Part shown: one piece after another, positions 11,113 to 54,628 of the stretch
How positions within the stretch are numbered: the stretch's first letter is position 1
Layout: each line of letters begins with the position of its first letter
Source: a virus
Lineage: Duplodnaviria > Caudoviricetes
Length of the DNA: 64,000 bases
Virus record (IMG/VR): IMGVR_UViG_3300013947_000024
Coordinates: 65,561 to 129,560 of that record
Direction: 5' to 3' (one strand)
The notes under the pieces: model-generated
What the model was told of the DNA's origin: nothing
The model's database searches: none
The model's input: only the letters and a program-made list of their open reading frames with translations
Translations under genes and position numbers: made by a program

Positions 11113-12684
11113 ATGCCTAAAATCGTAATTAACGAAAAAGACCAGACATCTCCTACCGCAGAACAACTGAGTGAAGATATTGTTTTTATCCCTGGTTTTG
11201 CAAATGTGAACGGGAATGTGTATATTAGTACGACAAGGGGAGAAACTCCAAAAGACGGCGTAGAGGGTACCGGAACAAAGGGTACTATCTATAAAGCTGG
11301 CGATACTGTTGACACCGCCAATGACGATCCGAGTATCTTCTCTAACACCGTTGATCTTAAGTCTTGGCAGTGCAAGCAGGTACCAGACGCTAAAGCCGAT
11401 CCTCAGGTCACAACTTATGTATGGACTGCGCTGGACACCTATGTGGCTCCGCACCCCGAGAATGAGATCGTTGTGTGTTACACCACCGAAGAGTTTCAGC
11501 AGAACTTTGGCACGGAGCCAGCTAAGTTCTCTGCCCCACAGGATCTTACTAATAACTGCTCTGATACGGCAAAATCGTATGCGTTTGAGAATGTTGAGGC
11601 GTTTCGCGCCAAAGATGATATTGACCTCTCTTATACAATGGCTATGGAGTGTCTGACTCTTGGTCTTCCTGTTGCGTATGTGAACATTACGAAGAGAGAA
11701 GCTGGTGCCCCGTATGTAGAGAAAAAGATTTCAGATCTTTATGATACACTGCCGACTGTTCTTGCAGACCTTGCTGACCCTGATTATGTCTATACAAGAT
11801 ACATCACAAGTGGCGCATATCCTTCTTTTGAAATGCAGACCACGAATGGCGCTCGTCTTGATAAGGCGATGATTGCTACGGCGAAAGCAAGACAGGACGC
11901 TTATGCGATTATCGACCATGGGGATAATTCCGCAAGACCTCTGTCTGGTACAAATTCTGTTATTTCGCAAGTTAGAGCTGATTTCGCACAGACAGACAAA
12001 GACGACAATAGTAACTCTTATGGCGCGATGTTTACGCCGTGGGGCACTTATAACATCACCAACCTGAATGAAAACATCGGTGGTGGTACACAGTCGATGC
12101 CCGCTTCCTTTGCGTATCTCTGTTGCCTTGGCAAAGCTCTGTCGGCTGGTAATCCTGCTTATCTTGCAATTGCTAACATTGGCAGAGGAAAGCCTCCGTT
12201 CCTGACTCATCTGAATACTACACAGAGACTTTCGAGCACGATCGCAAACACGGCAATGCAGAGCGATACGGCTATCTCCATTAACCCTATTACGAATATC
12301 AATCCTTACGGACTTGTGATCTACGGAAACAATACGCTGAAAGATAATGCTTTTTCAAAGGGCAAACAGGCGTCTTCAGACCTTAACATCAGAAACCTTG
12401 TGAGCCGTGTTACAAAACTTCTTCGTGATGCCGCCCAACAGATTATCTTTGAGCCGAACACGGACGCTCTGTGGGTAACATTCAAGGGCAGAATTATGCC
12501 GTCTCTTGATACCATGGTAACGAATCAGGGTCTTAAGAGATATAACATCGTTAGAGTCGATTCGAGCAATCCCAGAGAGGTTAAGGCAAAGGTTTATCTC
12601 TTCCCTGTTTATGCAGTTGAAAAGGTAACGATTGACCTTATTCTTTCTGACGCTGGTATTACTGTAGAAGGAGGAAATGAGTAA
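11113..12684 (+). CDS. Contractile tail sheath protein (gp18-like)
   Basis: MPKIVINEKD start, YGAMFTPW, INPI...GLVIYGNNTL, LNIRNL, FEPN...W sheath C-terminal motifs. Confidence 0.92.
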   Translation: MPKIVINEKDQTSPTAEQLSEDIVFIPGFANVNGNVYISTTRGETPKDGVEGTGTKGTIYKAGDTVDTANDDPSIFSNTVDLKSWQCKQVPDAKADPQVTTYVWTALDTYVAPHPENEIVVCYTTEEFQQNFGTEPAKFSAPQDLTNNCSDTAKSYAFENVEAFRAKDDIDLSYTMAMECLTLGLPVAYVNITKREAGAPYVEKKISDLYDTLPTVLADLADPDYVYTRYITSGAYPSFEMQTTNGARLDKAMIATAKARQDAYAIIDHGDNSARPLSGTNSVISQVRADFAQTDKDDNSNSYGAMFTPWGTYNITNLNENIGGGTQSMPASFAYLCCLGKALSAGNPAYLAIANIGRGKPPFLTHLNTTQRLSSTIANTAMQSDTAISINPITNINPYGLVIYGNNTLKDNAFSKGKQASSDLNIRNLVSRVTKLLRDAAQQIIFEPNTDALWVTFKGRIMPSLDTMVTNQGLKRYNIVRVDSSNPREVKAKVYLFPVYAVEKVTIDLILSDAGITVEGGNE

Positions 12685-13307
12685 TGATCAAAATCAAAGG
12701 CGTTAATAAAGAGAGCACTGTTTCCACTCCTTCTCTTGAAGCGCATAGCGCATATGCTCTCGCGGATAACCCCGAGCTTTGGGAACCGCAGAGACAGAAC
12801 AACTTCGAGTTTGTCGTTTCTGACCTTGACAACCTTGTAAGACCTGGCGTAGACCCCGAGTCCGATAACGCGAGCTTCGGTAACGCGCAGAAACTTCTCC
12901 GTCTCTCGGTTATGAGTTCGTCTGTCCCTCACTATACGAGCAATGTTATCACTCTTAACAGAGGTAACACCTCGATGAAGGTTGCTGGCAGAATGGAATT
13001 CCCCGAAGGTCAGCTTGTTATTCGTGATGCTATCGGAGCAGACACGAAGTCCATTCTCATGGCGTGGCAGATGAAGGCTGGCGACCCGCAGACTGGCAAG
13101 GTCGGTCTTATGAGCGACTACTACAAGGACGCGTGGCTTATCGAATATACTCCTGATTATCAGGTGGTTCGTCAGTGGAGACTTAAGGGGTGCTGGATTA
13201 GCGGTCTGACCGAAGACGCCTACAACATGGATAACGACGGTGAGAAGACAGTGACTGCTACGATTCAGTACAACATGGGCTATATCGACAATAGCGACAT
13301 TCTGTAA
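12684..13307 (+). CDS. Tail tube protein (gp19-like)
   Basis: EPQRQNNFE, YYKDAWL.EY.PD..VVRQW.L.GCW motifs; follows the sheath gene. Confidence 0.9.
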   Translation: MIKIKGVNKESTVSTPSLEAHSAYALADNPELWEPQRQNNFEFVVSDLDNLVRPGVDPESDNASFGNAQKLLRLSVMSSSVPHYTSNVITLNRGNTSMKVAGRMEFPEGQLVIRDAIGADTKSILMAWQMKAGDPQTGKVGLMSDYYKDAWLIEYTPDYQVVRQWRLKGCWISGLTEDAYNMDNDGEKTVTATIQYNMGYIDNSDIL

Positions 13308-13318
13308 TGAAATGCTTG

Positions 13319-13390
13319 TACCGTTGGCGCGACGGAAACATAAAGCCTGTGAGGAGCAGGAATCCGAAAGGAAGCGCACAAATACAACGC
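13319..13390 (+). ncRNA. Stand-alone miniature TnpB omegaRNA-like RNA (scaffold 13319-13379, putative guide from 13380)
   Basis: ccgtt-GGCGC-gacgg ... gcctgt ... agcaggaa ... a-GCGC-ac aligns element by element with the 3' omegaRNA/RE regions of the three IS605 elements in this window. No tnpB is adjacent. Confidence 0.7.
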
Positions 13391-13425
13391 ACGGCGGAGC
13401 GGACATGGTTCTGCTTCGCCGTTTT
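13391..13425 (+). terminator. Intrinsic terminator
   Basis: acggcggagcgga/tctgcttcgccgt 13-bp stem followed by a T-tract. Confidence 0.75.
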
Positions 13426-13445
13426 CTGTTAGAGAGGGGAAGATA

Positions 13446-14921
13446 ATGGCAAAGAGACTTAATCCTAACTTATGGGAAGATTCAAGATTAAAGCCAGAAG
13501 TATTAGAAGGCGTTAAGAACATATATGAATTCTTCATCCACCACTTTATAGACGAGTCAATCCCTCTTGACCCAGTAGATGTGAGAATCGTCGGCTCTAA
13601 TGCCGCGTATAATTATACAGACAAGTCTGATGTGGATATTCACATTGTAGACGGAAATACAAACAAAAAAGATATTACCCGATATGCTCAGTGGAAAGCT
13701 ACGAGAGATTTTAACGATAAATATGAAATCACTCTTAAAGGCGTCCCTGTTGAGCTTTATATCGAAGACATAGATAAGCCCGCTGTGTCAAACGGTGTTT
13801 ATTCTGTTACGGATGAAAGATGGCTACGCTATCCTCTTCCAGAACGCTCGTCAGAGGCGTCAGAATTGCCTACAATCGACGAAAGCAATGAATGGGTACA
13901 ACTAATCACAAAAGCAGAGAAAAACGCGTCAGCTAAAGAAATTCAGGCGCTTATCGACAAACTCTATGCCATGCGCAAGGAATCCATTGCAGATGATGGT
14001 GAAAAGGGTAAGGGGAACCTTATGTTTAAGGCTCTCCGTAACGCTGGCTATATTGACAGAATCAAGAAGGCATTGGATAAAGCTGTATCAAAGGAATTAT
14101 CCGTAGAGAGCCTTCATGAGTGCTTGCTTGAAAGAACACGCTCTGACCTTATTCGCCAGTCAAAAGATAGCGCTAAGGGAAGACAAAGATACGATAGAAG
14201 AACAAAATCAAGTGTAGCAAGAACGGTTCAACAGTATAACGAGATAGACATGAATAAGCTCTTCAAAGAGGATATTCTCACCGTTGACCTTCCTGTAAGA
14301 GGAGAAACAGATAATTATACTGTTAAAGTCAGCTTTGGTGGATTTCTTGATTCCCTACATGATGAAATGAAGAGGAATAACGGTGAGTTTGATTTCCGAG
14401 CCGTAACGAGAGCACTTCTTACTTGCTTTGATAGAGATGACACATTTGTAGGGTGTAGTTGCGCCGACTTCCGCTATCGCTTCGCATATGTAGCAACAAA
14501 ACGAGACTATATGTCAATGCTCCCCCAAATGATTCCCGCAAATATAACGAATCCAAAAGACTCATTGGGAAGTGCTTGTAAGCATGTTCTTCTTGTACTG
14601 GCTAATCATTCATGGCTATTAAAGGTAGCGAGCGTAATAAAGAACTATGTCACCTATATGGAAAGACATTATCAGAAAATGTACGCAGATATTATTTATC
14701 CCGCCATCTACGAGAAACCGTATGAAGGTGGGGTACAAATCACTATTGATGACGAGCAAAATGTTCCCCAAAAGGACACCATTACGCAAGCTAATATTGC
14801 CGCTCAGCAAGGAAGTAGATTCCAAAAGGGCAATGTGCAGGGCGTAAGGTTTGCTCCTAAATCAAAGCCTGATGAGCAGATAAGCATTGAAGACGAAGAA
14901 GAAGTAACTGAAGAAAATTAA
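13446..14921 (+). CDS. Pol-beta-family nucleotidyltransferase fused to a SWIM Zn-finger domain
   Basis: GSNAAYNYTDKSDVDIH (GS..DxD) motif; C-terminal CSCADF...ACKH SWIM motif. Confidence 0.8.
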   Translation: MAKRLNPNLWEDSRLKPEVLEGVKNIYEFFIHHFIDESIPLDPVDVRIVGSNAAYNYTDKSDVDIHIVDGNTNKKDITRYAQWKATRDFNDKYEITLKGVPVELYIEDIDKPAVSNGVYSVTDERWLRYPLPERSSEASELPTIDESNEWVQLITKAEKNASAKEIQALIDKLYAMRKESIADDGEKGKGNLMFKALRNAGYIDRIKKALDKAVSKELSVESLHECLLERTRSDLIRQSKDSAKGRQRYDRRTKSSVARTVQQYNEIDMNKLFKEDILTVDLPVRGETDNYTVKVSFGGFLDSLHDEMKRNNGEFDFRAVTRALLTCFDRDDTFVGCSCADFRYRFAYVATKRDYMSMLPQMIPANITNPKDSLGSACKHVLLVLANHSWLLKVASVIKNYVTYMERHYQKMYADIIYPAIYEKPYEGGVQITIDDEQNVPQKDTITQANIAAQQGSRFQKGNVQGVRFAPKSKPDEQISIEDEEEVTEEN

Positions 14922-27561: not shown

Positions 27562-28127
27562 GTGAATACATTGGCTATAAAGGCGAGGTCAGAATAACCT
27601 CCAGATATAAAGGTTCTCTTATTAAAGAACAGATTGTGCACAATGAGGGTTTATCGTATCTGTTTCAGTATCTCTGCCAATGCCTTGCGGCAATTCAGGG
27701 AATCACCGGAAACAATCCGAATCAGATTGCGGTAATCGGCGGTGGGAACCAATCTCAGAGTAGAAGCGCGACCGCTCGTTATTCGTTTGATGATAGCAAA
27801 CCTTATGCCGAGTTCTCTGCTACATTTACACAAAATGATTTTGGTGCTGATGGATATAGCGATGTCACTGGTAACACAGGTAAGGTGCGGTTAAAACTTC
27901 GGCGAGATAACAATGATTTTGCTCAGACGTATGTAGATAATTTCACAAAGATGTCAAAGGGAGAAGCTGTAACGATTGTATGGAGAATGACATTTACAGA
28001 TGCTTCTTCTTCCTCTGGCACAAATAATCAATCTTTGGCATCTCCTATTGCTGTACAGAAAGTATCGGCGCCGAAGAAGAAGGTAAAAACAACCCGTAAA
28101 GAAGTGGAGGTAGTGAAGAATGGCTAA
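27558..28127 (+). CDS. Hypothetical tail/baseplate protein
   Basis: GEVRIT......IKEQ.VHN and TIVW.MTF motifs common in tail fibre-attachment proteins. Confidence 0.5.
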   Translation: MSEYIGYKGEVRITSRYKGSLIKEQIVHNEGLSYLFQYLCQCLAAIQGITGNNPNQIAVIGGGNQSQSRSATARYSFDDSKPYAEFSATFTQNDFGADGYSDVTGNTGKVRLKLRRDNNDFAQTYVDNFTKMSKGEAVTIVWRMTFTDASSSSGTNNQSLASPIAVQKVSAPKKKVKTTRKEVEVVKNG

Positions 28128-28629
28128 GATTGCAAGTAATAGCATTTCGGTATTCCCTACAGTTAATAGAGGTGATGGAGATCAACTTGGTCGCTCTCAG
28201 AGACTGTTTACGGAGCAAAATGTTAGGGATATTGCTAATATGGTAAACTCTAAGGATTCTTATGTGATTGATGAAAACACAACCGTGGATGGCAAACAGT
28301 GCGTTGAATTTTGCCTCGTTGGGTATCATGTTTATGTTGATAAGGATGTGCTGGTGAATCTTGAAGGAATTGGCGTGGGGAACAGCATTTATGCCGTTGC
28401 ACAGTTCGATACAAACGGCAACTTAGATTCAGATGCAACCTCTACACCGAATGTATATAACGGCATTACTTTCCAAACCAGCGAACCAGATGAAGACAAT
28501 TCCAAATATCTACTTCTCGGAGCAAAAACACCGAGCGGATTGAGTGTTGCGAAATCGTCCAAAATCATGTATGATGGGGCGAGAGTAGATTCAACATCGC
28601 TTGATCTCATTGATGGCGGTACAATCTAA
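28120..28629 (+). CDS. Hypothetical structural protein
   Basis: Last ORF of the structural operon; ends IDGG. Confidence 0.45.
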   Translation: MAKIASNSISVFPTVNRGDGDQLGRSQRLFTEQNVRDIANMVNSKDSYVIDENTTVDGKQCVEFCLVGYHVYVDKDVLVNLEGIGVGNSIYAVAQFDTNGNLDSDATSTPNVYNGITFQTSEPDEDNSKYLLLGAKTPSGLSVAKSSKIMYDGARVDSTSLDLIDGGTI

Positions 28630-34997: not shown

Positions 34998-36140
34998 ATG
35001 ATTGTTTCTAAGTCATTCAAATTACGCTTATACCCAACGGAAGCACAACGCGCGATGATGAATAATAACATCGGCGCTTGTCGCTTCTTATATAACAATA
35101 TGCTACGCGAGCGTCTTGACGCATACGAAGCCCTTAAAGACGATAAACAAGCTCTTTGGGAATACAAATATAAGACAGAGAAACAGTACAAGGAGGAGTA
35201 CGAGTGGATGAAAGAGGTGGATAGTACATCTCTTCAGCAATCTCGTATTGACTTAACTCACGCGTATACAAATTTCTTTCGTTCTCTTCAAAATAAGAAG
35301 GGAGATAGTGGGTTCCCTAAATTCCATAAGAAGGGCGTTAAAGACTCTTATAGGGTTATGAATAATAATTACTCTATCAAGATGGATTTTGAAAATCGTA
35401 AAATTCGTATGCCTAAAATGGGATGGATTAAATTCAGAGACGATAGAGTTTTTGACCAGTCTCTTATCTCTTCTGTTACCATTTCTAAATCAAGCACGAA
35501 TAAGTATTATGCCTCTGTCTTGTGCCGTTTTGAAATCTCTGACATTGAAAAGATTAAGTATTCCGACGATTTAATCGTTAAAGGTCTTGATATGTCCATG
35601 GATAAGTTTTATATCGACAACGAAGGAAACTATCCAGAGTACTACAAGCAATACAGAATCAACCAAAAGAGACTTGCGTATTTACAGAAACAAGTAAGCA
35701 AAAAAGTCAAGGGTTCAGCCAACAGGAAGAAGGCACAACTTAGAGTCAACAAACTTTATGAGAAGATAGCCAATTCTCGTAAGGACTTTGTTGAAAAGCT
35801 GAGCAGAAAACTTGTTGACGAGAACGATATTATTGTGATAGAGTCGCTTAATATGAAAGCAATGTCACAATGCTTAAACCTTGGCAAATCTGTTAATGAC
35901 CTTGCGTGGGGAATGTTTGTTAATAGGCTCGAACAAAAGATAGCCTTAACAGAAAAGCTCTTAATCAAGGCGGACAGATTCTTTGCGTCTTCTCAAACAT
36001 GTCATATATGCGGATATAGGAATAAATCCTTGACGCTGAAAGACAGAGAGTGGGATTGCCCTGTATGCGGTAGCCACTTAATGAGAGATGAAAACGCAGG
36101 GGAAAATCTTAAACAATACGGAATTAACTTCTTGAAATAA
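34998..36140 (+). CDS. tnpB: RNA-guided endonuclease TnpB
   Basis: K.RLYPT HTH, GLDM / IESLN / RDENA RuvC residues, CHICG..CPVCG Zn finger. Confidence 0.95.
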   Translation: MIVSKSFKLRLYPTEAQRAMMNNNIGACRFLYNNMLRERLDAYEALKDDKQALWEYKYKTEKQYKEEYEWMKEVDSTSLQQSRIDLTHAYTNFFRSLQNKKGDSGFPKFHKKGVKDSYRVMNNNYSIKMDFENRKIRMPKMGWIKFRDDRVFDQSLISSVTISKSSTNKYYASVLCRFEISDIEKIKYSDDLIVKGLDMSMDKFYIDNEGNYPEYYKQYRINQKRLAYLQKQVSKKVKGSANRKKAQLRVNKLYEKIANSRKDFVEKLSRKLVDENDIIVIESLNMKAMSQCLNLGKSVNDLAWGMFVNRLEQKIALTEKLLIKADRFFASSQTCHICGYRNKSLTLKDREWDCPVCGSHLMRDENAGENLKQYGINFLK

Positions 36141-36152
36141 GAAGTGATTTTT

Positions 36153-36247
36153 ACAGGGTCGGGACGACCCGTAGAGCCTGTGGAGACGCCCGCACTGGCG
36201 GGGTCTATGAAGCAGGAATCTTACCACTTTAGTGGTGAGAAGTTCAA
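36153..36247 (+). ncRNA. TnpB omegaRNA 3' scaffold / IS right end
   Basis: gggtc-GGGAC-gaccc, gcctgtgg..gaagcaggaa, RE hairpin, agttcaa. Confidence 0.75.
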
Positions 36248-38809: not shown

Positions 38810-38908
38810 GGATAAATGATGGCGAGATACATAGACGCAGACAATTTAAAAATACGGAGCAGAAATCCCAATCCCTTTAGGGTTTGGGATGAATACGACA
38901 AATAAAGT

Positions 38909-39313
38909 ATGAGTAATTGGAAATCTAAAAACAGAAGGAAATATTTACTTCAATATCATTTGATTTTTGTTTGTAAATATAGGAAAAAATTATTTTGTCT
39001 TCCAAATATTTCTAATGACATTAAACAGTTCTCATATGAGATATGTCTAAAACACGATATTCAAATCAAATATATGGAAACGGATAAAGATCATATTCAT
39101 TATATGATTGAAACGACGCCAAATGTTGCTTTATCGTGGGTTGTTGATTTGCTAAAGTCATATACAACATTTCATATTTGGAAACTGTACCAAAATATTC
39201 TGCGAAAATATTTTTGGAAAGAAAATACTTTTTGGACAGATGGATATTTTGTTTGCAGTGTTGGCAACGTCTCTGAGAAAATGCTAAAGGAATATATAGA
39301 AAATCAAGGCTAA
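38909..39313 (+). CDS. tnpA: IS200/IS605 Y1 HUH transposase
   Basis: YHLIFVCKYR, DHIH (HUH), FWTDGYF, YIENQ. Confidence 0.96.
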   Translation: MSNWKSKNRRKYLLQYHLIFVCKYRKKLFCLPNISNDIKQFSYEICLKHDIQIKYMETDKDHIHYMIETTPNVALSWVVDLLKSYTTFHIWKLYQNILRKYFWKENTFWTDGYFVCSVGNVSEKMLKEYIENQG

Positions 39314-39333
39314 AAGAAAGGAGGAAATATATA

Positions 39334-40428
39334 ATGATTGTAAATAGGGCATATAAATTTCGTTTATATCCAAATGAAGAGCAGAAAATAATGTTTGCTA
39401 AAACGTTTGGGTGCGTCAGGTTTATTTATAACAAAATGCTTGAAGACAAAATCAAACATTATCAAGAAACAAAAGAAAAGTTGAATAACACACCGTCTCA
39501 ATATAAACCAGAATTTGAATGGCTAAAAGAAGTCGATAGTCTCGCTCTTGCAAACGCCCAAATGAATTTACAATCGGCATATAATAACTTCTTTCGTAGT
39601 CCAAAAGTTGGGTTTCCAAAATTCAAGAGAAAAAGAAAAGACAAGAATTCTTACACGACAAACAATCAGAATGGAACCGTTTCGATTGTTGATGGGAGGT
39701 TAAGACTTCCAAAAGTTGGATTAGTTAAGATGGTTCAACACAGAATAATTCCGTCTAATCAAAAAATTAAATCCGCAACAATTGAGAAGACTCGATCTGG
39801 TAAATATTATGTTTCTATATTAGTAGAATTTGAGAAAGAAACTCCAAATCTTAAATTAGATAAAACAAAAGCATTGGGGTTAGATTACGCGAGCCACAGT
39901 TTTTATGTCGATAGCCAAGGCAGAGAAGCTAATTACCCGAAATTCTATCGTAATGCACAAACGGTTTTATCAAAAGAACAAAAAAAACTTTCTCTTATGA
40001 AATATGGAAGTAATAATTATGAGAAACAGAGAGTTCGGGTGGCAAAAATTCAAGAGTATATCGCAAATCAAAGAAAAGACTGGTTGCATAAATTGAGTTT
40101 TGAATTGGCTGAAATATATGATTATATTTGTGTCGAAGACATCAATATGCAGAGTATGGCGCAGTCATTAAAACTCGGGAAATCAACCAACGACAATGGA
40201 TTTGGAATGTTTAGAACATTTCTTGCATACAAGCTCGCAGAAAGAGGAAAACAGTTAATTAAAATCGATAAATGGTTTCCTTCAAGTAAAATGTGTAGAT
40301 TTTGCGGATGTGTCAACAAAGGTTTGAAGCTTTCTGAAAGAGTCTGGACTTGTGAATGTGGAGCAGTTCTCAACAGAGATGAAAATGCCGCAATAAATAT
40401 TATGAATGCTGGACTCTCAATGGTCTGA
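39334..40428 (+). CDS. tnpB: RNA-guided endonuclease TnpB
   Basis: AYKFRLYP, GLDY / VEDIN / RDENAA, Zn finger. Confidence 0.96.
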   Translation: MIVNRAYKFRLYPNEEQKIMFAKTFGCVRFIYNKMLEDKIKHYQETKEKLNNTPSQYKPEFEWLKEVDSLALANAQMNLQSAYNNFFRSPKVGFPKFKRKRKDKNSYTTNNQNGTVSIVDGRLRLPKVGLVKMVQHRIIPSNQKIKSATIEKTRSGKYYVSILVEFEKETPNLKLDKTKALGLDYASHSFYVDSQGREANYPKFYRNAQTVLSKEQKKLSLMKYGSNNYEKQRVRVAKIQEYIANQRKDWLHKLSFELAEIYDYICVEDINMQSMAQSLKLGKSTNDNGFGMFRTFLAYKLAERGKQLIKIDKWFPSSKMCRFCGCVNKGLKLSERVWTCECGAVLNRDENAAINIMNAGLSMV

Positions 40429-41004
40429 TGCTATAAACAACCGCAGGAACTGCGGGGGTAGTCTGTTGATACTGTTGGTCAATGGTTATTGTGAAATTTT
40501 TAGAGCGGTAACTAAACCGACTTGAGCAGGAAGCCCACGCCCCTTTAGGGGCTGGGTAGTTCACTAAAGAAAATGCAAGAGCGATACGATGACCTTTTGA
40601 ACGAGGATGGATACTATGAAAATTTTACGCAAGGTTATGGAGACGCGCTTTCCACGGTCGAAAATGAGCCTACTGCCGATGTGCGGGAGGTGAAGCGCGG
40701 GGAGTGGATTTACAGAGGTCATCACGAAGTGATGGGATACTCATTTGAATGCTCTATCTGTGGGAGATGGATGTTTGCCAATTCTCCCGACCACGTCGTT
40801 GAAGAATATCCGTATTGCCATTGTGGTGCTGTAATGATGGGAGATAAAGAAAATGAAGATTAAAATTGAAGTGCCCGACACTATACTATGCGCAACTATG
40901 ACTTATGTGTGCGAGGATAACGGGTCGTTGAAGATGGAAACAAAATCCTTCAATACAGATACTATTGATGAGTATAAACTTAAAACGGAGAAGGATTCTA
41001 AACA

Positions 41005-41259
41005 ATGATTAAAATTATTAAAGACGGTCAAAAGGAATTTATTGCCAAGTGCAACACTTGTGGTTGCGAATTCTCGTATGAGCTTATGGATATTAGTATT
41101 GGCTCACAAGTAGAATGTCCTTATTGTGGTCATTATGTACCTCATGTACTTAAAAGGGGCAATTCTAATATATTTGATGTTCGTACTGTTCCGCTTAATT
41201 ACGCCACACAGACAACCGCAGACTGGGTAGAGTCTGCTGAAACAATTACTGCGCGATGA
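41005..41259 (+). CDS. Zn-ribbon protein
   Basis: CNTCGCEF..CPYCG. Confidence 0.6.
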   Translation: MIKIIKDGQKEFIAKCNTCGCEFSYELMDISIGSQVECPYCGHYVPHVLKRGNSNIFDVRTVPLNYATQTTADWVESAETITAR

Positions 41260-41269
41260 AGGAGCAGAA

Positions 41270-41826
41270 ATGACAGAATACACAGTAGAAATGTTAAAAT
41301 CACCCACAGATGCTGATTGGCGGTGGGTAAAAACTTGCACTCTTAACACTGTAGGGAAAACATCAACAAAGCTCCCTACGGAGAGTGGAAAAAGAAACTT
41401 ATTGAAGCAGAACATAGCCCCATGAGAGAGTTGTGGTTTGGGTTTAAGATCGAGGCTCCATACTGGCTCGTCATGCACCTTTGCCGTCACCACATAGGGT
41501 GCAATCACTATGTTCAAACACAGCGCAGTGATAGACAAGATAAGTATGACAGAGCATCCGCTCCGCAGGGACAGATTGTCAGTCATATTCTCTCCATTAA
41601 CGCACAGGAGCTTGTCTTTATGGCTCATAAGAGATTATGCGGTCAGGCGTCACCAGAAACAAGAGCGGTTGTAAGAAAGATGTGTGACCTTGTTATTGAG
41701 AAATATCCCGAATTCAAAGATGTTCTCGTCCCTCTTTGCCAGTATAGGGGTGGCTTGTGCACTGAATTTCATTCCTGCGGATTAAACAAGAAATTTCAGA
41801 GAAATTCTTCTGAATCAGACGATTAA
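41270..41826 (+). CDS. thyX: Flavin-dependent thymidylate synthase, frameshifted near 41380
   Basis: The N-terminal frame (MTEYTV..KLPTE) and C-terminal frame (EWKKKLIEAEHSP..RHH...VQTQRSDR..RLC.QA.PE.R) differ by one nt. Confidence 0.8.
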
Positions 41827-50405: not shown

Positions 50406-50626
50406 AACTGGCAATTACATCGTTTGTTTGTTCTCTTGTTTCGCTTGTCATCTTTTGGTGGCTTGGCATTGTTGGAGTATTCCTTGGTGTCACAGCTGTG
50501 TGTAGATGCGAGGGCGATCTTAATGACAAGAATTTAATCACTGGATTTTCTGTGGCTGGAATTGTCATCGGAGCAATTGGCGTTGTTTTGTATCTGTTCA
50601 TTCTTGCCACTCTTAGAGGCGTGTAA
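50402..50626 (+). CDS. Small membrane protein
   Basis: Hydrophobic throughout. Confidence 0.55.
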   Translation: MKLAITSFVCSLVSLVIFWWLGIVGVFLGVTAVCRCEGDLNDKNLITGFSVAGIVIGAIGVVLYLFILATLRGV

Positions 50627-50667
50627 ACTTGCTACAATCGACGAAGAGGCTTGCATGGAAGAATTAA

Positions 50668-50926
50668 TTTCAAGGATTTCATTCAGGCATTAAAAGGGAG
50701 AACCGCAATGGCGTTACGTGCGAGATTTCCGTCTCTCATCAATGAGAAACTATGGGGAGATCATTTCTGGTCTCCGTCTTACTTCTTGGCGACAGTAGGC
50801 GATGTTTCGCTTGATACACTCGTTAACTATGTAAACACACAAAGAAAGGAGTCTGTTGATGATGAAGAGGAACAAGGCGTTCAAGTACAGAATTTACCCA
50901 AATCAGAGTCAACGGATTCTAATTAG
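50668..50926 (+). pseudogene. tnpA: C-terminal half of Y1 transposase
   Basis: LKGRT..LR..FP....LWGDHFWSPSYF..TVG......YV.TQ; the HUH half is missing. Confidence 0.85.
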
Positions 50927-51947
50927 CAAAACATTTGGTTGTTGCAGATTCATCTACAATAAGATGCTTGAGGATAAGATCTCGTACTATCAAGAAAATG
51001 GCGAAACTCTTAAAAATACGCCAGCGCAATATAAGGGCGAGTTTGAATGGTTGACTGAAGTGGATAGTCAGGCGTTAGCAAATGAACAAATGCACTTACA
51101 ATCAGCTTTCAACAACTGCTTCAAGAATAAGAAATTTGGTTTTCCAAAATTCAAGTCGAAGAGGAAGACAAAACGTTCTTATTCAACTTGCTGTGTAAGC
51201 ATTAGAAAAGACGGATTACATCTTGGTAAACTCGGCAAGGTCAGTTTTAGATACCATAGAGAAATACCGAGCGACTACAAGATTAAGTCTGCTACAATAT
51301 CACAAAGCACATCTGGAAAGTATTACATTTCTATTCTAACAGAATATGAGTATGAAGTACCAGACAGAGAATTAGACAAATCAAAATCTATAGGTCTTGA
51401 TTATAGCTCTCATAACTTCTATGTCGATAGCCAAGGCACGGAGGCATTACAAGAGCATTATTTCAGGCAGATAGAAAAGGATTTGGCGAAGCAACAAAGA
51501 ATCTTATCTCATATGGTTCTCGGAAGCAATAACTACTACAAGCAATTACGCAAGGTCGGTAGAATTCACGAGAAAGCAAGCAACAAGAGAAAAGACTTTG
51601 TTGAAAAGTTATCGACTAAACTCTCGCGAGAATATGACATTGTTTGTGTCGAAGACTTAAATCTAAAAGGGATATCTCAATCACTTCGCCTTGGTAAAGC
51701 TACTATGGATAACGGGTTTGGAATATTTAGAGATAAACTTCAACAGAAACTTGAAATTCAAGGAAAGAAATTAGTCAAAATCAACAAGTGGTTCCCATCA
51801 AGTAAAATGTGTAATGTATGCGGTTGTATCAACCAAGGTCTTCACCTTAAAGACAGAGCGTGGACTTGTACTTGTGGAGCACACTTAAACCGCGACCTTA
51901 ATGCGGCAATTAACATACGCAACGAAGGATTAAGGCAACTCGCCTAA
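50856..51947 (+). CDS. tnpB: RNA-guided endonuclease TnpB
   Basis: AFKYRIYP, GLDY / VEDLN / RDLNAA, Zn finger. Confidence 0.95.
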   Translation: MMMKRNKAFKYRIYPNQSQRILISKTFGCCRFIYNKMLEDKISYYQENGETLKNTPAQYKGEFEWLTEVDSQALANEQMHLQSAFNNCFKNKKFGFPKFKSKRKTKRSYSTCCVSIRKDGLHLGKLGKVSFRYHREIPSDYKIKSATISQSTSGKYYISILTEYEYEVPDRELDKSKSIGLDYSSHNFYVDSQGTEALQEHYFRQIEKDLAKQQRILSHMVLGSNNYYKQLRKVGRIHEKASNKRKDFVEKLSTKLSREYDIVCVEDLNLKGISQSLRLGKATMDNGFGIFRDKLQQKLEIQGKKLVKINKWFPSSKMCNVCGCINQGLHLKDRAWTCTCGAHLNRDLNAAINIRNEGLRQLA

Positions 51948-52212
51948 TTCATCATTATAAAGAACCGCAGGAACTGCGGGGATAGCCTGTTGATACTGTG
52001 AGTCAATGCTCGTTGTGAAATTTTTAGCACAGCGATTAAACTTACTTGAGCAGGAAGCCATCCGACTTTAGTCGGTGGTGGTTCACCAGATGAAGAACTT
52101 GCATACGCTTGTGGCTATCGTGACGGCTTTCATAGAGCTATCGAGCTAATGAACGCACAGACTGAACAACTAATTAAACAAATGGACGCATTACAGGAGG
52201 ATAAAATAAAGT

Positions 52213-52455
52213 ATGGCAAATACGAAAAAGAAAACGGTGACTGCTGAAGAAGTAAAGGCGGAAGTGGTCGAGAATGTTGGAAAGATTGTCGAGAATATTC
52301 AGGAGGAAGAAGCGCTTGCAAAGAACGGAGTTACCGTTACAGAGCATCGTGTATTTTGGAAGTGCAAGTTTTGTAATAGAGTATTCCCGAGCAGAGCAGA
52401 GATGAAGAAGCATGTTGCGCACTGCCGACTGAATCCCGAAAACGAAGAAATGTAA
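52213..52455 (+). CDS. C2H2 Zn-finger protein
   Basis: WKCKFCNRVF......KKHVAHC. Confidence 0.65.
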   Translation: MANTKKKTVTAEEVKAEVVENVGKIVENIQEEEALAKNGVTVTEHRVFWKCKFCNRVFPSRAEMKKHVAHCRLNPENEEM

Positions 52456-53039: not shown

Positions 53040-53905
53040 TGGGGCGGATTATTAACGGGAAAGAGATTGCTACAAAGATCAGAGCGGAGCTGGCGGATAA
53101 AATTAAATATCTAATTGAATTCGGCTATAGAGCGCCGTGTCTTACAGTCATTCAGGTAGGAGACGATCCTGCTTCTTCGACATATGTCCGCAACAAGAAG
53201 AAGGCATGTGAAGAGTGCGGAATCGAATGTAGAGACATTCATCTTCCCGACACGAGTAAAGAAGATGATCTTTTGCGCACCATCCGCTATCTGAATATTG
53301 ACAAAGAAGTTGACGGTATTCTTGTCCAGCTTCCTCTTCCTAAGCATATGAACGAGAGACGAGTTCTTGAGCATATCGCCATTAACAAAGATGTGGACGG
53401 ATTTGCCATTGCAAACGCTGGTAAATTGCTTATAGGTGAAGATTGCACACTCCCTTGTACTCCCGCAGGGGTAATTGAACTTCTTCGCTCTACAGGCGTT
53501 AATTTGGCTTCTAAGAACGCCGTCGTAATTGGGCGTAGTAACATTGTCGGTAAGCCGATGGCGCTTCTTCTCCAGCGAGAGAATATGAATGTAACAATGC
53601 TTCATTCTAAGACTTCGCAGGATGACATGGAGTTTTACTGTCGCCACGCCGATGTGGTTGTGGTCGCAACAGGACACGAGAACACGCTTACCGACAGGCA
53701 TTTCTACGGGGGCAAGAATCCGATTATTATTGATGTCGGAATCAACCGTGGCTCGGACGGAAAGCTTCATGGAGATGTTTCTGAAGAGGTGAAGGCGAAG
53801 TATTCAAGTTATTATACACCTACCCCTGGAGGAACTGGTCCTCTCACCATCGCAATGTTGATGAAGAATGTATTCAAGGCATACAAGAAGGATTTGGAGG
53901 CTTAA
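53036..53905 (+). CDS. folD: Methylenetetrahydrofolate dehydrogenase/cyclohydrolase
   Basis: YVRNK.KAC, GILVQLPLP, KDVDG, PCTPAG, GRSNIVGKP, DVGINR, PGG.GP.T.AML. Confidence 0.97.
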   Translation: MMGRIINGKEIATKIRAELADKIKYLIEFGYRAPCLTVIQVGDDPASSTYVRNKKKACEECGIECRDIHLPDTSKEDDLLRTIRYLNIDKEVDGILVQLPLPKHMNERRVLEHIAINKDVDGFAIANAGKLLIGEDCTLPCTPAGVIELLRSTGVNLASKNAVVIGRSNIVGKPMALLLQRENMNVTMLHSKTSQDDMEFYCRHADVVVVATGHENTLTDRHFYGGKNPIIIDVGINRGSDGKLHGDVSEEVKAKYSSYYTPTPGGTGPLTIAMLMKNVFKAYKKDLEA

Positions 53906-53908
53906 GCA

Positions 53909-54307
53909 ATGATTGAAATCTATGATGTTATCTATTCTGTATCTATTGACGGAGCACCGTATCGTCGAGTGTGCGGTGTGTTGGATGATGTATGGAAAGT
54001 GCTCTATGTAAAGCCAGAAAACGGAACTCTTTTGGAAAATGTGCCGTTCGATCAGGCATACCGCTTTGTTTCTACTCTGCCCATTAGTGGAGTCCATGCC
54101 ACAAGAACATGGATACGAAACAGACCGCAAATCAATATCATGTATGCTGGTGCGTTTCAGGACATTGCGATTACCAAGTGCAAGACATTTTCTCTTCGTG
54201 TGGATTGCAAGCTGAGAAATGTCACAATGAAGTGGCTACTGGATAATCTGTCTGTTGAAGATGCTACTCCGTACATCATTCAGCACGGATTGCAGTCATA
54301 TCTTTAA
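53909..54307 (+). CDS. Hypothetical protein
   Basis: RBS ggagg. Confidence 0.55.
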   Translation: MIEIYDVIYSVSIDGAPYRRVCGVLDDVWKVLYVKPENGTLLENVPFDQAYRFVSTLPISGVHATRTWIRNRPQINIMYAGAFQDIAITKCKTFSLRVDCKLRNVTMKWLLDNLSVEDATPYIIQHGLQSYL

Positions 54308-54319
54308 TAGGAGAGAAAG

Positions 54320-54628
54320 ATGGTTAAATCAATTGAATTTTTTGACAAAGAGGAAGATCTGAAAAATCTCACTGGTCTCACACACGACGAGCTATGGGCG
54401 TTCGGCTTCGACCTTGACGACTGGGACTGGGGTTTTGTCTCGGACGAGTGCTACACTAAAACGGTTGAAGCAGATGAAGACGACCCGTATTCATATCCGC
54501 ACGACGAAGTTCTATGGGATATTCCGCAGTATGTGCGACAGATTCTGAATATGATGGACTCTTACTGCGTCGGCTTTCATCACACAGAGTTCCGTGGAAG
54601 ACATTACTACATGCAGTACCACTCGTGA
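54320..54628 (+). CDS. Acidic hypothetical protein
   Basis: RBS aggag; LDDWDWG motif. Confidence 0.55.
   Translation: MVKSIEFFDKEEDLKNLTGLTHDELWAFGFDLDDWDWGFVSDECYTKTVEADEDDPYSYPHDEVLWDIPQYVRQILNMMDSYCVGFHHTEFRGRHYYMQYHS

Follow-up and report, generated by a model that had tools for sequence, protein, structure and literature searches.

The DNA analyzed here, hereafter the window, is the 64,000-nucleotide (nt) second half (positions 65,561 to 129,560) of the 129,560-base viral contig IMGVR_UViG_3300013947_000024 of IMG/VR, from a virus of the Caudoviricetes; "genome" denotes the whole 129.6 kb. Between the stop codon of its tail tube gene and the terminator of that gene lies a 61-nt sequence, called the mini element below, that resembles a shortened omegaRNA of a TnpB-encoding transposon. 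In such insertion sequences (IS), the transcript of the transposon right end provides the scaffold for TnpB, and the flanking sequence provides the guide. A preliminary description, which quoted the letters of 13319–13425 correctly, had read the locus as a stand-alone guide RNA, possibly aimed at the left ends of the phage's own IS605-type elements. The genes and features of the locus are listed below in window coordinates; V1–V4 are the four sequence variants of the element introduced later.

11113-12684: tail sheath gene, upstream of the tube gene
12684..13307, + strand: tail tube gene, matching PHROG tail tube families (E 4e-16) and, weakly, Pfam T4 gp19; its 3′ untranslated region holds the mini element
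13308..13318, + strand: variable spacer of 11 nt between stop codon and element; 6/11 sites differ among V1–V4
13319..13379, + strand: miniature omegaRNA-like scaffold, a right-end derivative of 61 nt; the covariance-model matches span exactly these coordinates
13321..13335, + strand: P1 hairpin, a stem of 5 base pairs (bp; 13321–13325 with 13331–13335) with the loop GGCGC (13326–13330)
13336..13345, + strand: P1–P2 spacer, 10 nt, in which the near-invariant family motif GG-R-W-TAG is degenerate
13346..13360, + strand: P2 closing stem, 5 bp (13346–13350 with 13356–13360), with a 5-nt loop (13351–13355) in place of P3
13363..13372, + strand: 3-bp hairpin with a GAAA loop (GAAG in relative L044), replacing the TnpA-type right-end hairpin P4
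13374..13379, + strand: 3′ strand of the pseudoknot, GCGC (nt −6 to −3), and terminal AC (nt −2 and −1); the scaffold end, invariant in all variants and agreeing in position with ISDra2
13380..13392, + strand: putative guide, about 11–13 nt single-stranded ahead of the terminator stem
13391..13428, + strand: intrinsic terminator that ends the tube transcript; stem of 13 bp, 8 of them G-C, loop of 6 nt, and tail TTTTCTGTT
13446-14921: gene for a 491-residue protein without assigned function (PHROG 36119, no Pfam match), kept at this position in all relatives

The mini element lies within the 138 non-coding bases that separate the tube stop codon from the 491-residue gene, and it adjoins the tube gene directly, not the 3′ end of a tnpB gene. 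No sigma-70-like promoter was found between the tube gene and the element; therefore, the element should be transcribed as the 3′ untranslated region of the tube mRNA, ending at the tube terminator. The terminator is of the intrinsic type, since its hairpin is G+C-rich, a T run comes next, and the gene ends there; a homologous terminator stands 3′ of the tube gene in all relatives, element-bearing or element-free. As previously described, the element is part of the late tube transcript and a strong terminator follows it. A small protein-coding frame at 13312–13446 overlaps the element and was rejected, as neither the frame nor its start codon is preserved in the variants; the mini element is therefore non-coding. 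A 180-nt contig from an RNA library (run X13) covers 13319–13498; it starts precisely where the element does and extends past the terminator into the downstream gene. This contig is V3-like, has one A deleted at 13372, and, at a depth of 2, is a hint; the sequencing-run data consist of contigs only, which cover small parts of the query and are uninformative on transcript ends or level. The start of the 491-residue protein has a motif that we take to resemble the G-S ... D-x-D signature of nucleotidyltransferase folds.

The architecture of the omegaRNA family was derived from an alignment of 22 right ends of relatives of TnpB-A, one of the phage's own TnpB proteins, collected from genomes and viral contigs, with the mini element left out. 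RNAalifold and pair counting revealed four helices: the P1 hairpin, the closing stem P2, a variable stem P3, and the end hairpin P4. In this fold, 93% of the cells were paired; none of 500 shuffles reached the observed values, and slid controls gave 35–45%. The P2 stem covaries (CCTG/CAGG, CTCG/CGAG, CTTA/TAAG). Furthermore, nt 2–5 of the P1 loop pair with the four bases ahead of the terminal A-C/A in 22/22 sequences, and this pseudoknot also covaries, with CG, AU, GC, and UA at one position and AU or CG at another. The right ends were located partly by loop/terminus complementarity; nonetheless, the partner is always found in the same place beside the conserved terminus, and the arrangement matches the ISDra2 structure. 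The loop/terminus pseudoknot that the preliminary description had proposed is thus real for the family.

The mini element retains the core of this architecture. Nucleotides 2–5 of its P1 loop, GCGC, form the 5′ strand of the pseudoknot and make four Watson–Crick pairs with GCGC at 13374–13377, including the family-invariant G:C at −3; as had been proposed, the pseudoknot is kept through changes on both strands. P2 is a CCTG/CAGG closing stem, and AA stands between P2 and the end hairpin. Nearly all family-invariant bases are present, namely the A before P1, GG in the loop, GAA after P2, the C-G at the base of P4, the C at −3, and the A at −2. In contrast, the internal stem P3 (stem 3) is missing and the 5-nt loop 13351–13355 stands instead, while the end hairpin consists of 3 bp and a tetraloop versus 8–12 bp with TTTA-type loops in the family. 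No left-end hairpin was found upstream. Since it has neither a left end nor a TnpA hairpin, the mini element cannot transpose, and both reductions agree with the earlier account. It is present in a single copy in the genome and at the identical locus in all variants. In the minimum-free-energy fold of the window sequence, 13314–13320 is complementary to 13383–13390, most of the putative guide, over 7 bp with one bulge. This long-range helix was rejected as not conserved, since the left flank varies in the other variants.

Covariance models of the 22 sequences, an approach that the preliminary description had suggested, placed the mini element directly behind the true right ends. The first model, which has no pseudoknot, ranked 13319–13379 fourth in the window behind the three true right ends (13.5 bits, E 0.37); the alignment covers model positions 1–94, with local ends replacing P3 and the interior of P4. 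The second model, with the pseudoknot helix in place of P1, scored the element at 20.8 bits (E 0.011), a gain of 7.3 bits, as the best non-IS match and with exact ends; the next match in the window reached 14.4 bits. In the remaining 65 kb of the genome, only the right ends of an IStron and of a gene-less element (52.5 and 49.2 bits) outscored it, and the background did not exceed 12.5 bits. The mini element is therefore the first behind five true right ends across the 129.6-kb genome and the sole intermediate-scoring match. Two weak model matches, 28113–28164 on the minus strand (14.4 bits, E 0.28) and 41214–41303 on the plus strand (12.4 bits, E 0.63), have a P1-like hairpin and a terminal TCAC, and the former spans the boundary between two genes; both may be either chance matches or additional right ends in decay.

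Taken together, the mini element is very probably derived from an IS605-family right end/omegaRNA. Its P1 stem letters are those of a Desulfosporosinus-type relative, its P2–P4 junction resembles the A-type right end, and its terminus resembles those of IS-B and IS-C. This mixed likeness indicates that the parent was a family member absent from this genome. Rfam at gathering and permissive thresholds gave no match in the region. Searches for such a parent or for further copies were negative: no exact copies of the core were present in viral contigs, and the covariance model found nothing real in 80 loci screened for a full-length parent with the same loop, for which there were more than 116 pattern matches. 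A P4-like string gave two matches in viral contigs, which were rejected as chance matches in unrelated high-GC phages.

The informative relatives of the phage are tube-protein homologues at 98%, 92%, and 79% identity in public assemblies, reached via a large protein collection. Cultured phages gave no DNA match to the locus and distant tube proteins only, and tube-protein scans of IMG/VR and JGI metagenomes gave relatives at 51% identity or less, or none. The 98% relative (L044) has the element, as do L053–L065, and it is present in many contigs whose tube protein is that of the window or a mate from its cluster. It also occurs in runs X1, X2, X4, and X13, and contigs from other runs, including pig-gut metagenomes, show the same variants. 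The element-bearing relatives give the four variants V1–V4. The element is absent from the 92% relatives (L046–48, L066–69) and the 79% relatives (L049–52), which have a spacer of 26–28 nt or 17 nt and the homologous terminator; relatives at 51% have the terminator only. Because it is present in the 98% relative and the window's own tube-protein cluster and absent at 92% and 79%, the mini element is a lineage-specific insertion. The spacer 13308–13318 aligns with the ancestral spacer of the element-free 79% relatives (L049–L052). The 92% type lacks this ancestral left spacer, yet it has the last 4–5 scaffold bases and the guide region (16/18); a shuffle test on the remainder of its spacer gave p = 0.09. 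The element-free 92% relatives are probable deletion derivatives, in which case loss of the element is not lethal to the phage. A gene called 40 nt past the tube gene in L067 was rejected as a candidate tnpB; it is a mis-called start of the downstream gene.

The variation among V1–V4 is distributed according to the predicted fold. The fractions of variable positions are as follows.

Third codon positions of the tube gene: 39.6%
Helix positions of the element: 3/34
P1–P2 spacer and the two loops: 9/18
Other single-stranded, family-invariant positions: 0/9
Guide: 0/11
Terminator: 0/38
Downstream third codon positions: 8/54

The P1–P2 spacer has four variable sites and one insertion among the variants, and the loop of P2 varies at 4/5 sites above a stem that is unchanged in all of them. 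The nine single-stranded bases that never vary, including the first G of the loop, the GAA junction, and the terminal AC, are also invariant in true omegaRNAs. In V2, the closing T.G of P1 is changed to T-A, an improved pair. In V4, one P1 pair is broken and the last C of the loop is changed to T, with the C-G of the pseudoknot kept as a wobble. Between V1 and V3, 22% of the flanking third codon positions differ, against 0/34 helix positions. Fisher's test gave p = 0.024 for paired versus unpaired sites and p = 6e-4 for paired sites versus pooled third codon positions. Fast and slow sites alternate every few bases within 61 nt, a pattern that recombination blocks cannot produce, which suggests that the mini element is a constrained RNA fold. 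Since the sample is small, we regard this constraint as no more than likely.

The putative guide does not provide comparable support. The 13 bases after the scaffold are invariant in all variants, and 11–12/12 of them are kept in the element-free 92% relatives. In the latter, the terminator is conserved at 34/36 positions, including the letters of its loop, though synonymous sites are about 40–46% diverged. Because the guide block is equally conserved in relatives that have no element, its conservation is not creditable to guide function. The comparison of related phages that had been recommended thus gave a divided answer: the element is kept in at least four natural variants with changes concentrated in loops, but guide conservation is shared with element-free relatives. 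The guide and terminator block as a whole (13380–13428) is far more conserved than a terminator requires. A search for the guide sequence next to a transposon-adjacent motif (TAM), which the preliminary description had also recommended, found no target in the phage genome or in viral contigs. The guide 15-mer had 55 matches in viral contigs, about the number expected by chance as estimated from the size of the collection, and none had a TAM or a longer match. In the element-free relatives, the guide region has a 1-nt indel and no known TAM.

The phage carries several elements that could supply a TnpB. These are listed below; the first three have window coordinates and the last two, which lie outside the window, genome coordinates.

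34998..36247, + strand: IS-A, with tnpB at 34998-36140 and right end/omegaRNA at 36154-36247; confirmed by Pfam, RuvC D/E/D intact
38850..40564, + strand: IS-B, with tnpA (Y1 type) at 38909-39313, tnpB at 39334-40428, and right end at 40439-40564; confirmed by Pfam
50856..52086, + strand: IS-C, 5′-truncated, with tnpB at 50856-51947 and right end at 51963-52086; confirmed by Pfam
53479-54585: fourth TnpB gene, in an IStron, 11 kb before the window
about 52,090-52,255: gene-less palindrome-associated transposable element (PATE), 13.3 kb before the window start, with both end hairpins, an A-type right end, the TAM TTAT, and the end GTTCAA

The three right ends in the window have the layout previously described, and together with those of the IStron and the PATE they make up the five true right ends of the genome. 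Their termini, set by where copies diverge, are GTTCAA (A-type, PATE), GTTCAC (IS-B and IS-C), and GTTCAG (IStron), and the TAMs are TTAT (A-type), TTTAA (IS-B), and TTGAT (IStron). The RuvC D/E/D triad is intact in 4/4 TnpBs of the genome. TnpB-A matches the TnpB of ISDra2 with E 9e-67, the P2–P4 junction of IS-A (GGAATC) is the nearest to that of the mini element, and a phage bearing variant V2 has a 99% identical TnpB-A. IS-A is a possible trans partner of the mini element. The closest tnpB is 21.6 kb downstream and the next about 24 kb upstream, and the statement that no tnpB lies within 20 kb holds.

Several further observations concern these transposons. IS-C has lost its left end, and its tnpA is reduced to a remnant at about 50626–50850. 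IS-B splits an open reading frame, which continues across the joined flanks (38818–38849 with 40565 onward) if the element ends after TTTAA, and IS-C likewise lies within a frame (window 52087 onward). The PATE sits inside the loop of a 13-bp inverted repeat just 3′ of the open reading frame 50677–52071; it looks as though a transposon had landed in the hairpin of a terminator, a site of the kind that the mini element occupies too. Among the matches listed from gut assemblies, TnpB-A has dozens of homologues at 88–99% identity, and TnpB-B has clusters of hundreds of members at 80–91%. The many near-identical TnpBs, several of them on contigs of 115–130 kb, suggest that these IS elements are actively spreading among this phage group.

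Our results suggest the following history. A small clade of animal-gut myophages would descend from a phage in which an IS605-family TnpB transposon had inserted after the tube stop codon, ahead of the tube terminator; this copy would then have been cut down and immobilized to the omegaRNA core. The core retained would comprise stem 1 and its loop, the pseudoknot that the loop forms with nt −6 to −3, a 4–5-bp stem 2, the GAA junction, a tetraloop-capped base of the end hairpin, and the terminal AC. The late tube mRNA, an abundant transcript, would carry it as 3′ untranslated region and would end at the terminator about 12 nt past the scaffold. The likeliest partner would be one of the four catalytically intact TnpBs of the phage, acting in trans, and the RNA may work as a short-guide ribonucleoprotein that binds rather than cuts, or as a competitor for TnpB.

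The steps of this proposal differ in strength. As the helices and the invariant single-stranded bases stayed constant while the loops drifted, we read the mini element as probably a functional RNA. That it is a ligand of one of the TnpBs of the phage seems to us a little less than an even bet. The full proposal, namely a natural minimal TnpB guide RNA with a 61-nt pseudoknot core, fixed in a phage late transcript and loaded in trans by a phage TnpB, whose guide would bind without cutting because it is about 12 nt long, has in our estimate a probability of roughly 0.25. Several published findings are consistent with it. In the ISDra2 omegaRNA structure, nt −6 to −2 pair with the stem-1 loop (PMC10097598), and the pseudoknot core is the conserved, essential part of omegaRNAs. 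In an engineered ISDra2 omegaRNA, the flexible stem trimmed with a GAAA linker works and improves the omegaRNA (PMC10097598). The omegaRNAs of gene-less PATEs are thought to use TnpB in trans (PMC10055086). Wild-type ISDge10 TnpB (TAM TTAT) with a 10-nt guide binds and does not cut (PMC13507860), and TldR guides may be 9–11 nt (PMC10705468).

A number of points weigh against this proposal. In ISDra2, stems 2 and 3a contact RuvC and the upper part of stem 4 contacts the WED domain, and stem 3a and the upper hairpin are the parts missing here. Deletion of SL3 or SL5, the matching stem-loops of an IStron omegaRNA, abolished cleavage (PMC13521648), and the protein-contacting omegaRNA domains of ISDge10 are essential (PMC13507860). 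The P1–P2 spacer motif, near-invariant in the family, is degenerate and drifting in the mini element. The model score is modest (E just 0.37 when the pseudoknot is left out), and the stability of the fold is unremarkable (z = −1.5). Compared with downstream third codon positions alone, paired sites gave p = 0.24, and there are only four variants. The element is dispensable, being absent from and probably lost in the sister lineage. Guide conservation is common to relatives that have no element, and no TAM-flanked guide target was found in the phage genome or viral contigs. Finally, the sole RNA-library trace of the element is the one 180-nt contig of depth 2.

Two alternatives would explain the mini element without TnpB. 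The core may have been exapted as a cis-acting structure of the 3′ untranslated region that stabilizes or processes the tube mRNA or tunes read-through into the next gene. The element is located past the stop codon of a major late gene, ahead of the terminator, and has no promoter of its own; constraint falls on its helices and not on its drifting loops, and it lacks those portions through which solved or tested omegaRNAs contact TnpB. In addition, the terminator block is unusually conserved even where the element is absent, which argues that the region has an element-independent function. However, a generic stabilizer would not need the nine invariant single-stranded bases that match true omegaRNAs, sister phages do well with the terminator alone, and the 13-bp terminator already protects the 3′ end. 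We consider this cis-acting role unlikely, while regarding it as a serious competitor. Slightly more doubtful is an inert fossil, that is, a decaying solo right end whose tidy appearance arose when slippage deleted the interiors of hairpins and spared the stem bases. The genome is full of decaying IS605-type elements, including the 5′-truncated IS-C, the gene-less PATE, and two gene-splitting IS copies. The narrow clade and the absence from the sister lineage, the degenerate spacer motif, the P1 pair broken in one variant, and the modest selection signal (p = 0.024) from four related sequences would also be expected of a fossil. This explanation does not account for variation of 50% in the loops and spacer and 34–55% at flanking neutral sites versus 9% in the helices and 0/9 at the invariant single-stranded positions. 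The contrast is on the scale of a few bases and is not explained by recombination blocks, and V1 and V3, which differ at 22% of flanking third codon positions, are identical at all 34 helix positions.

Chance resemblance, in which ordinary intergenic sequence happens to combine two short motifs with small hairpins, appears very improbable. We estimate that the motif pair (a 6-mer and an 8-mer within 140 nt) is expected by chance about once per genome, and the model without the pseudoknot gave E 0.37. In contrast, the element aligns over its full length with exact ends, inclusion of the pseudoknot raises the score by 7.3 bits, no other sequence in 129.6 kb scores at an intermediate level, and nearly all family-invariant positions are kept in what is an insertion relative to outgroup phages, within a genome that has five true copies. 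We give even less credence to the idea with which the preliminary description had begun, a domesticated guide that sends an IS-encoded TnpB to the junctions of TAM and left end for anti-transposon cutting or repression. The identity of the first 6 nt of the guide with the 6 nt after TTTAA at the IS-B left junction (38845–38855) is present as described, and short guides can bind without cutting. Nevertheless, the match is only 9/12 overall, with three mismatches at positions 7–9, and the boundary of the IS-B left end, lying in an A-run, is ambiguous. The left ends of the A-type come after TTAT and show no match to the guide, and IS-C has no left end. Moreover, 15 other sites in the genome match the guide 12-mer better, with two or fewer mismatches, and the guide block, conserved in element-free relatives, does not track IS left ends. 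The left-end match is at background level and not above chance.

If the mini element is bound by TnpB, as the proposal of a minimal guide RNA requires, a natural experiment has revealed the smallest scaffold that the nuclease accepts (about 61 nt versus 95–116 nt in known natural scaffolds), which would be relevant to compact genome editors. It would also represent an intermediate from a selfish transposon guide to a domesticated guide in which the RNA, and not the protein, was fixed by the host, here the phage. If the full minimal-guide proposal is correct, the phage has domesticated a TnpA-independent RNA-guided regulator or competitor-exclusion device that uses the smallest natural scaffold known for the nuclease family. 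If the element is TnpB-independent, it clearly exemplifies the reuse of a transposon end as a 3′ element of an mRNA; a mere fossil would be ordinary. In any case, the mini element is a concrete, small, and easily tested construct.

This study also allows a comparison with known TnpB-associated RNAs. As in the omegaRNA (right-end element RNA, reRNA) of IS200/IS605 transposons, e.g., ISDra2 (PDB 8H1J/8EXA; PMC10097598), the stem-1 loop of the mini element pairs with nt −6 to −3 before the guide, stem 2 is short, an end hairpin follows, and the flank directly after the scaffold would be the guide. Its sequence belongs to the same family as the five true right ends of the genome. In contrast to omegaRNAs, it measures 61 nt, whereas ISDra2 has 116 nt and the members of this family have about 94–125 nt, counted from P1 to the end. 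Stem 2 of ISDra2 closes an internal stem, whereas that of the mini element closes a 5-nt loop. The mini element has no stem 3, a 3-bp end hairpin, and a degenerate spacer motif; it is unattached to tnpB or to transposon ends, and its guide is capped at about 12 nt by the terminator.

Three other types of RNA are similar in part. PATEs (Meers et al., PMC10055086), like the mini element, have no protein gene and an omegaRNA-type scaffold and would rely on a TnpB encoded elsewhere; however, they have both end hairpins and are mobile and multi-copy, whereas the mini element has no left end and no TnpA hairpin and is a single copy at one fixed locus. Engineered minimal omegaRNAs (ISDra2 Trim2 with its GAAA linker; the ISDge10 minimal scaffold) share the tetraloop-capped stub and the preserved pseudoknot core, but they keep the protein-contacting stem 3a and end hairpin, both absent from the mini element, a natural product of evolution. 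The guide RNAs of TldR proteins, nuclease-dead TnpB repressors of which some are prophage-encoded (PMC10705468), are likewise omegaRNA-derived; a fixed role outside transposition, a phage context, and a short guide (9–11 nt are known for TldR) would be common to both. TldR guide RNAs have an adjacent tldR and scaffolds of 95–100 nt, whereas the mini element has no adjacent TnpB, the four TnpBs of the genome have the triad, and a promoter target was not found. Stand-alone omegaRNAs and PATEs are already known; what sets the mini element apart is the extreme reduction to a 61-nt core, the loss of every transposition feature, the placement in the transcript of a structural gene, and the evidence of constraint.

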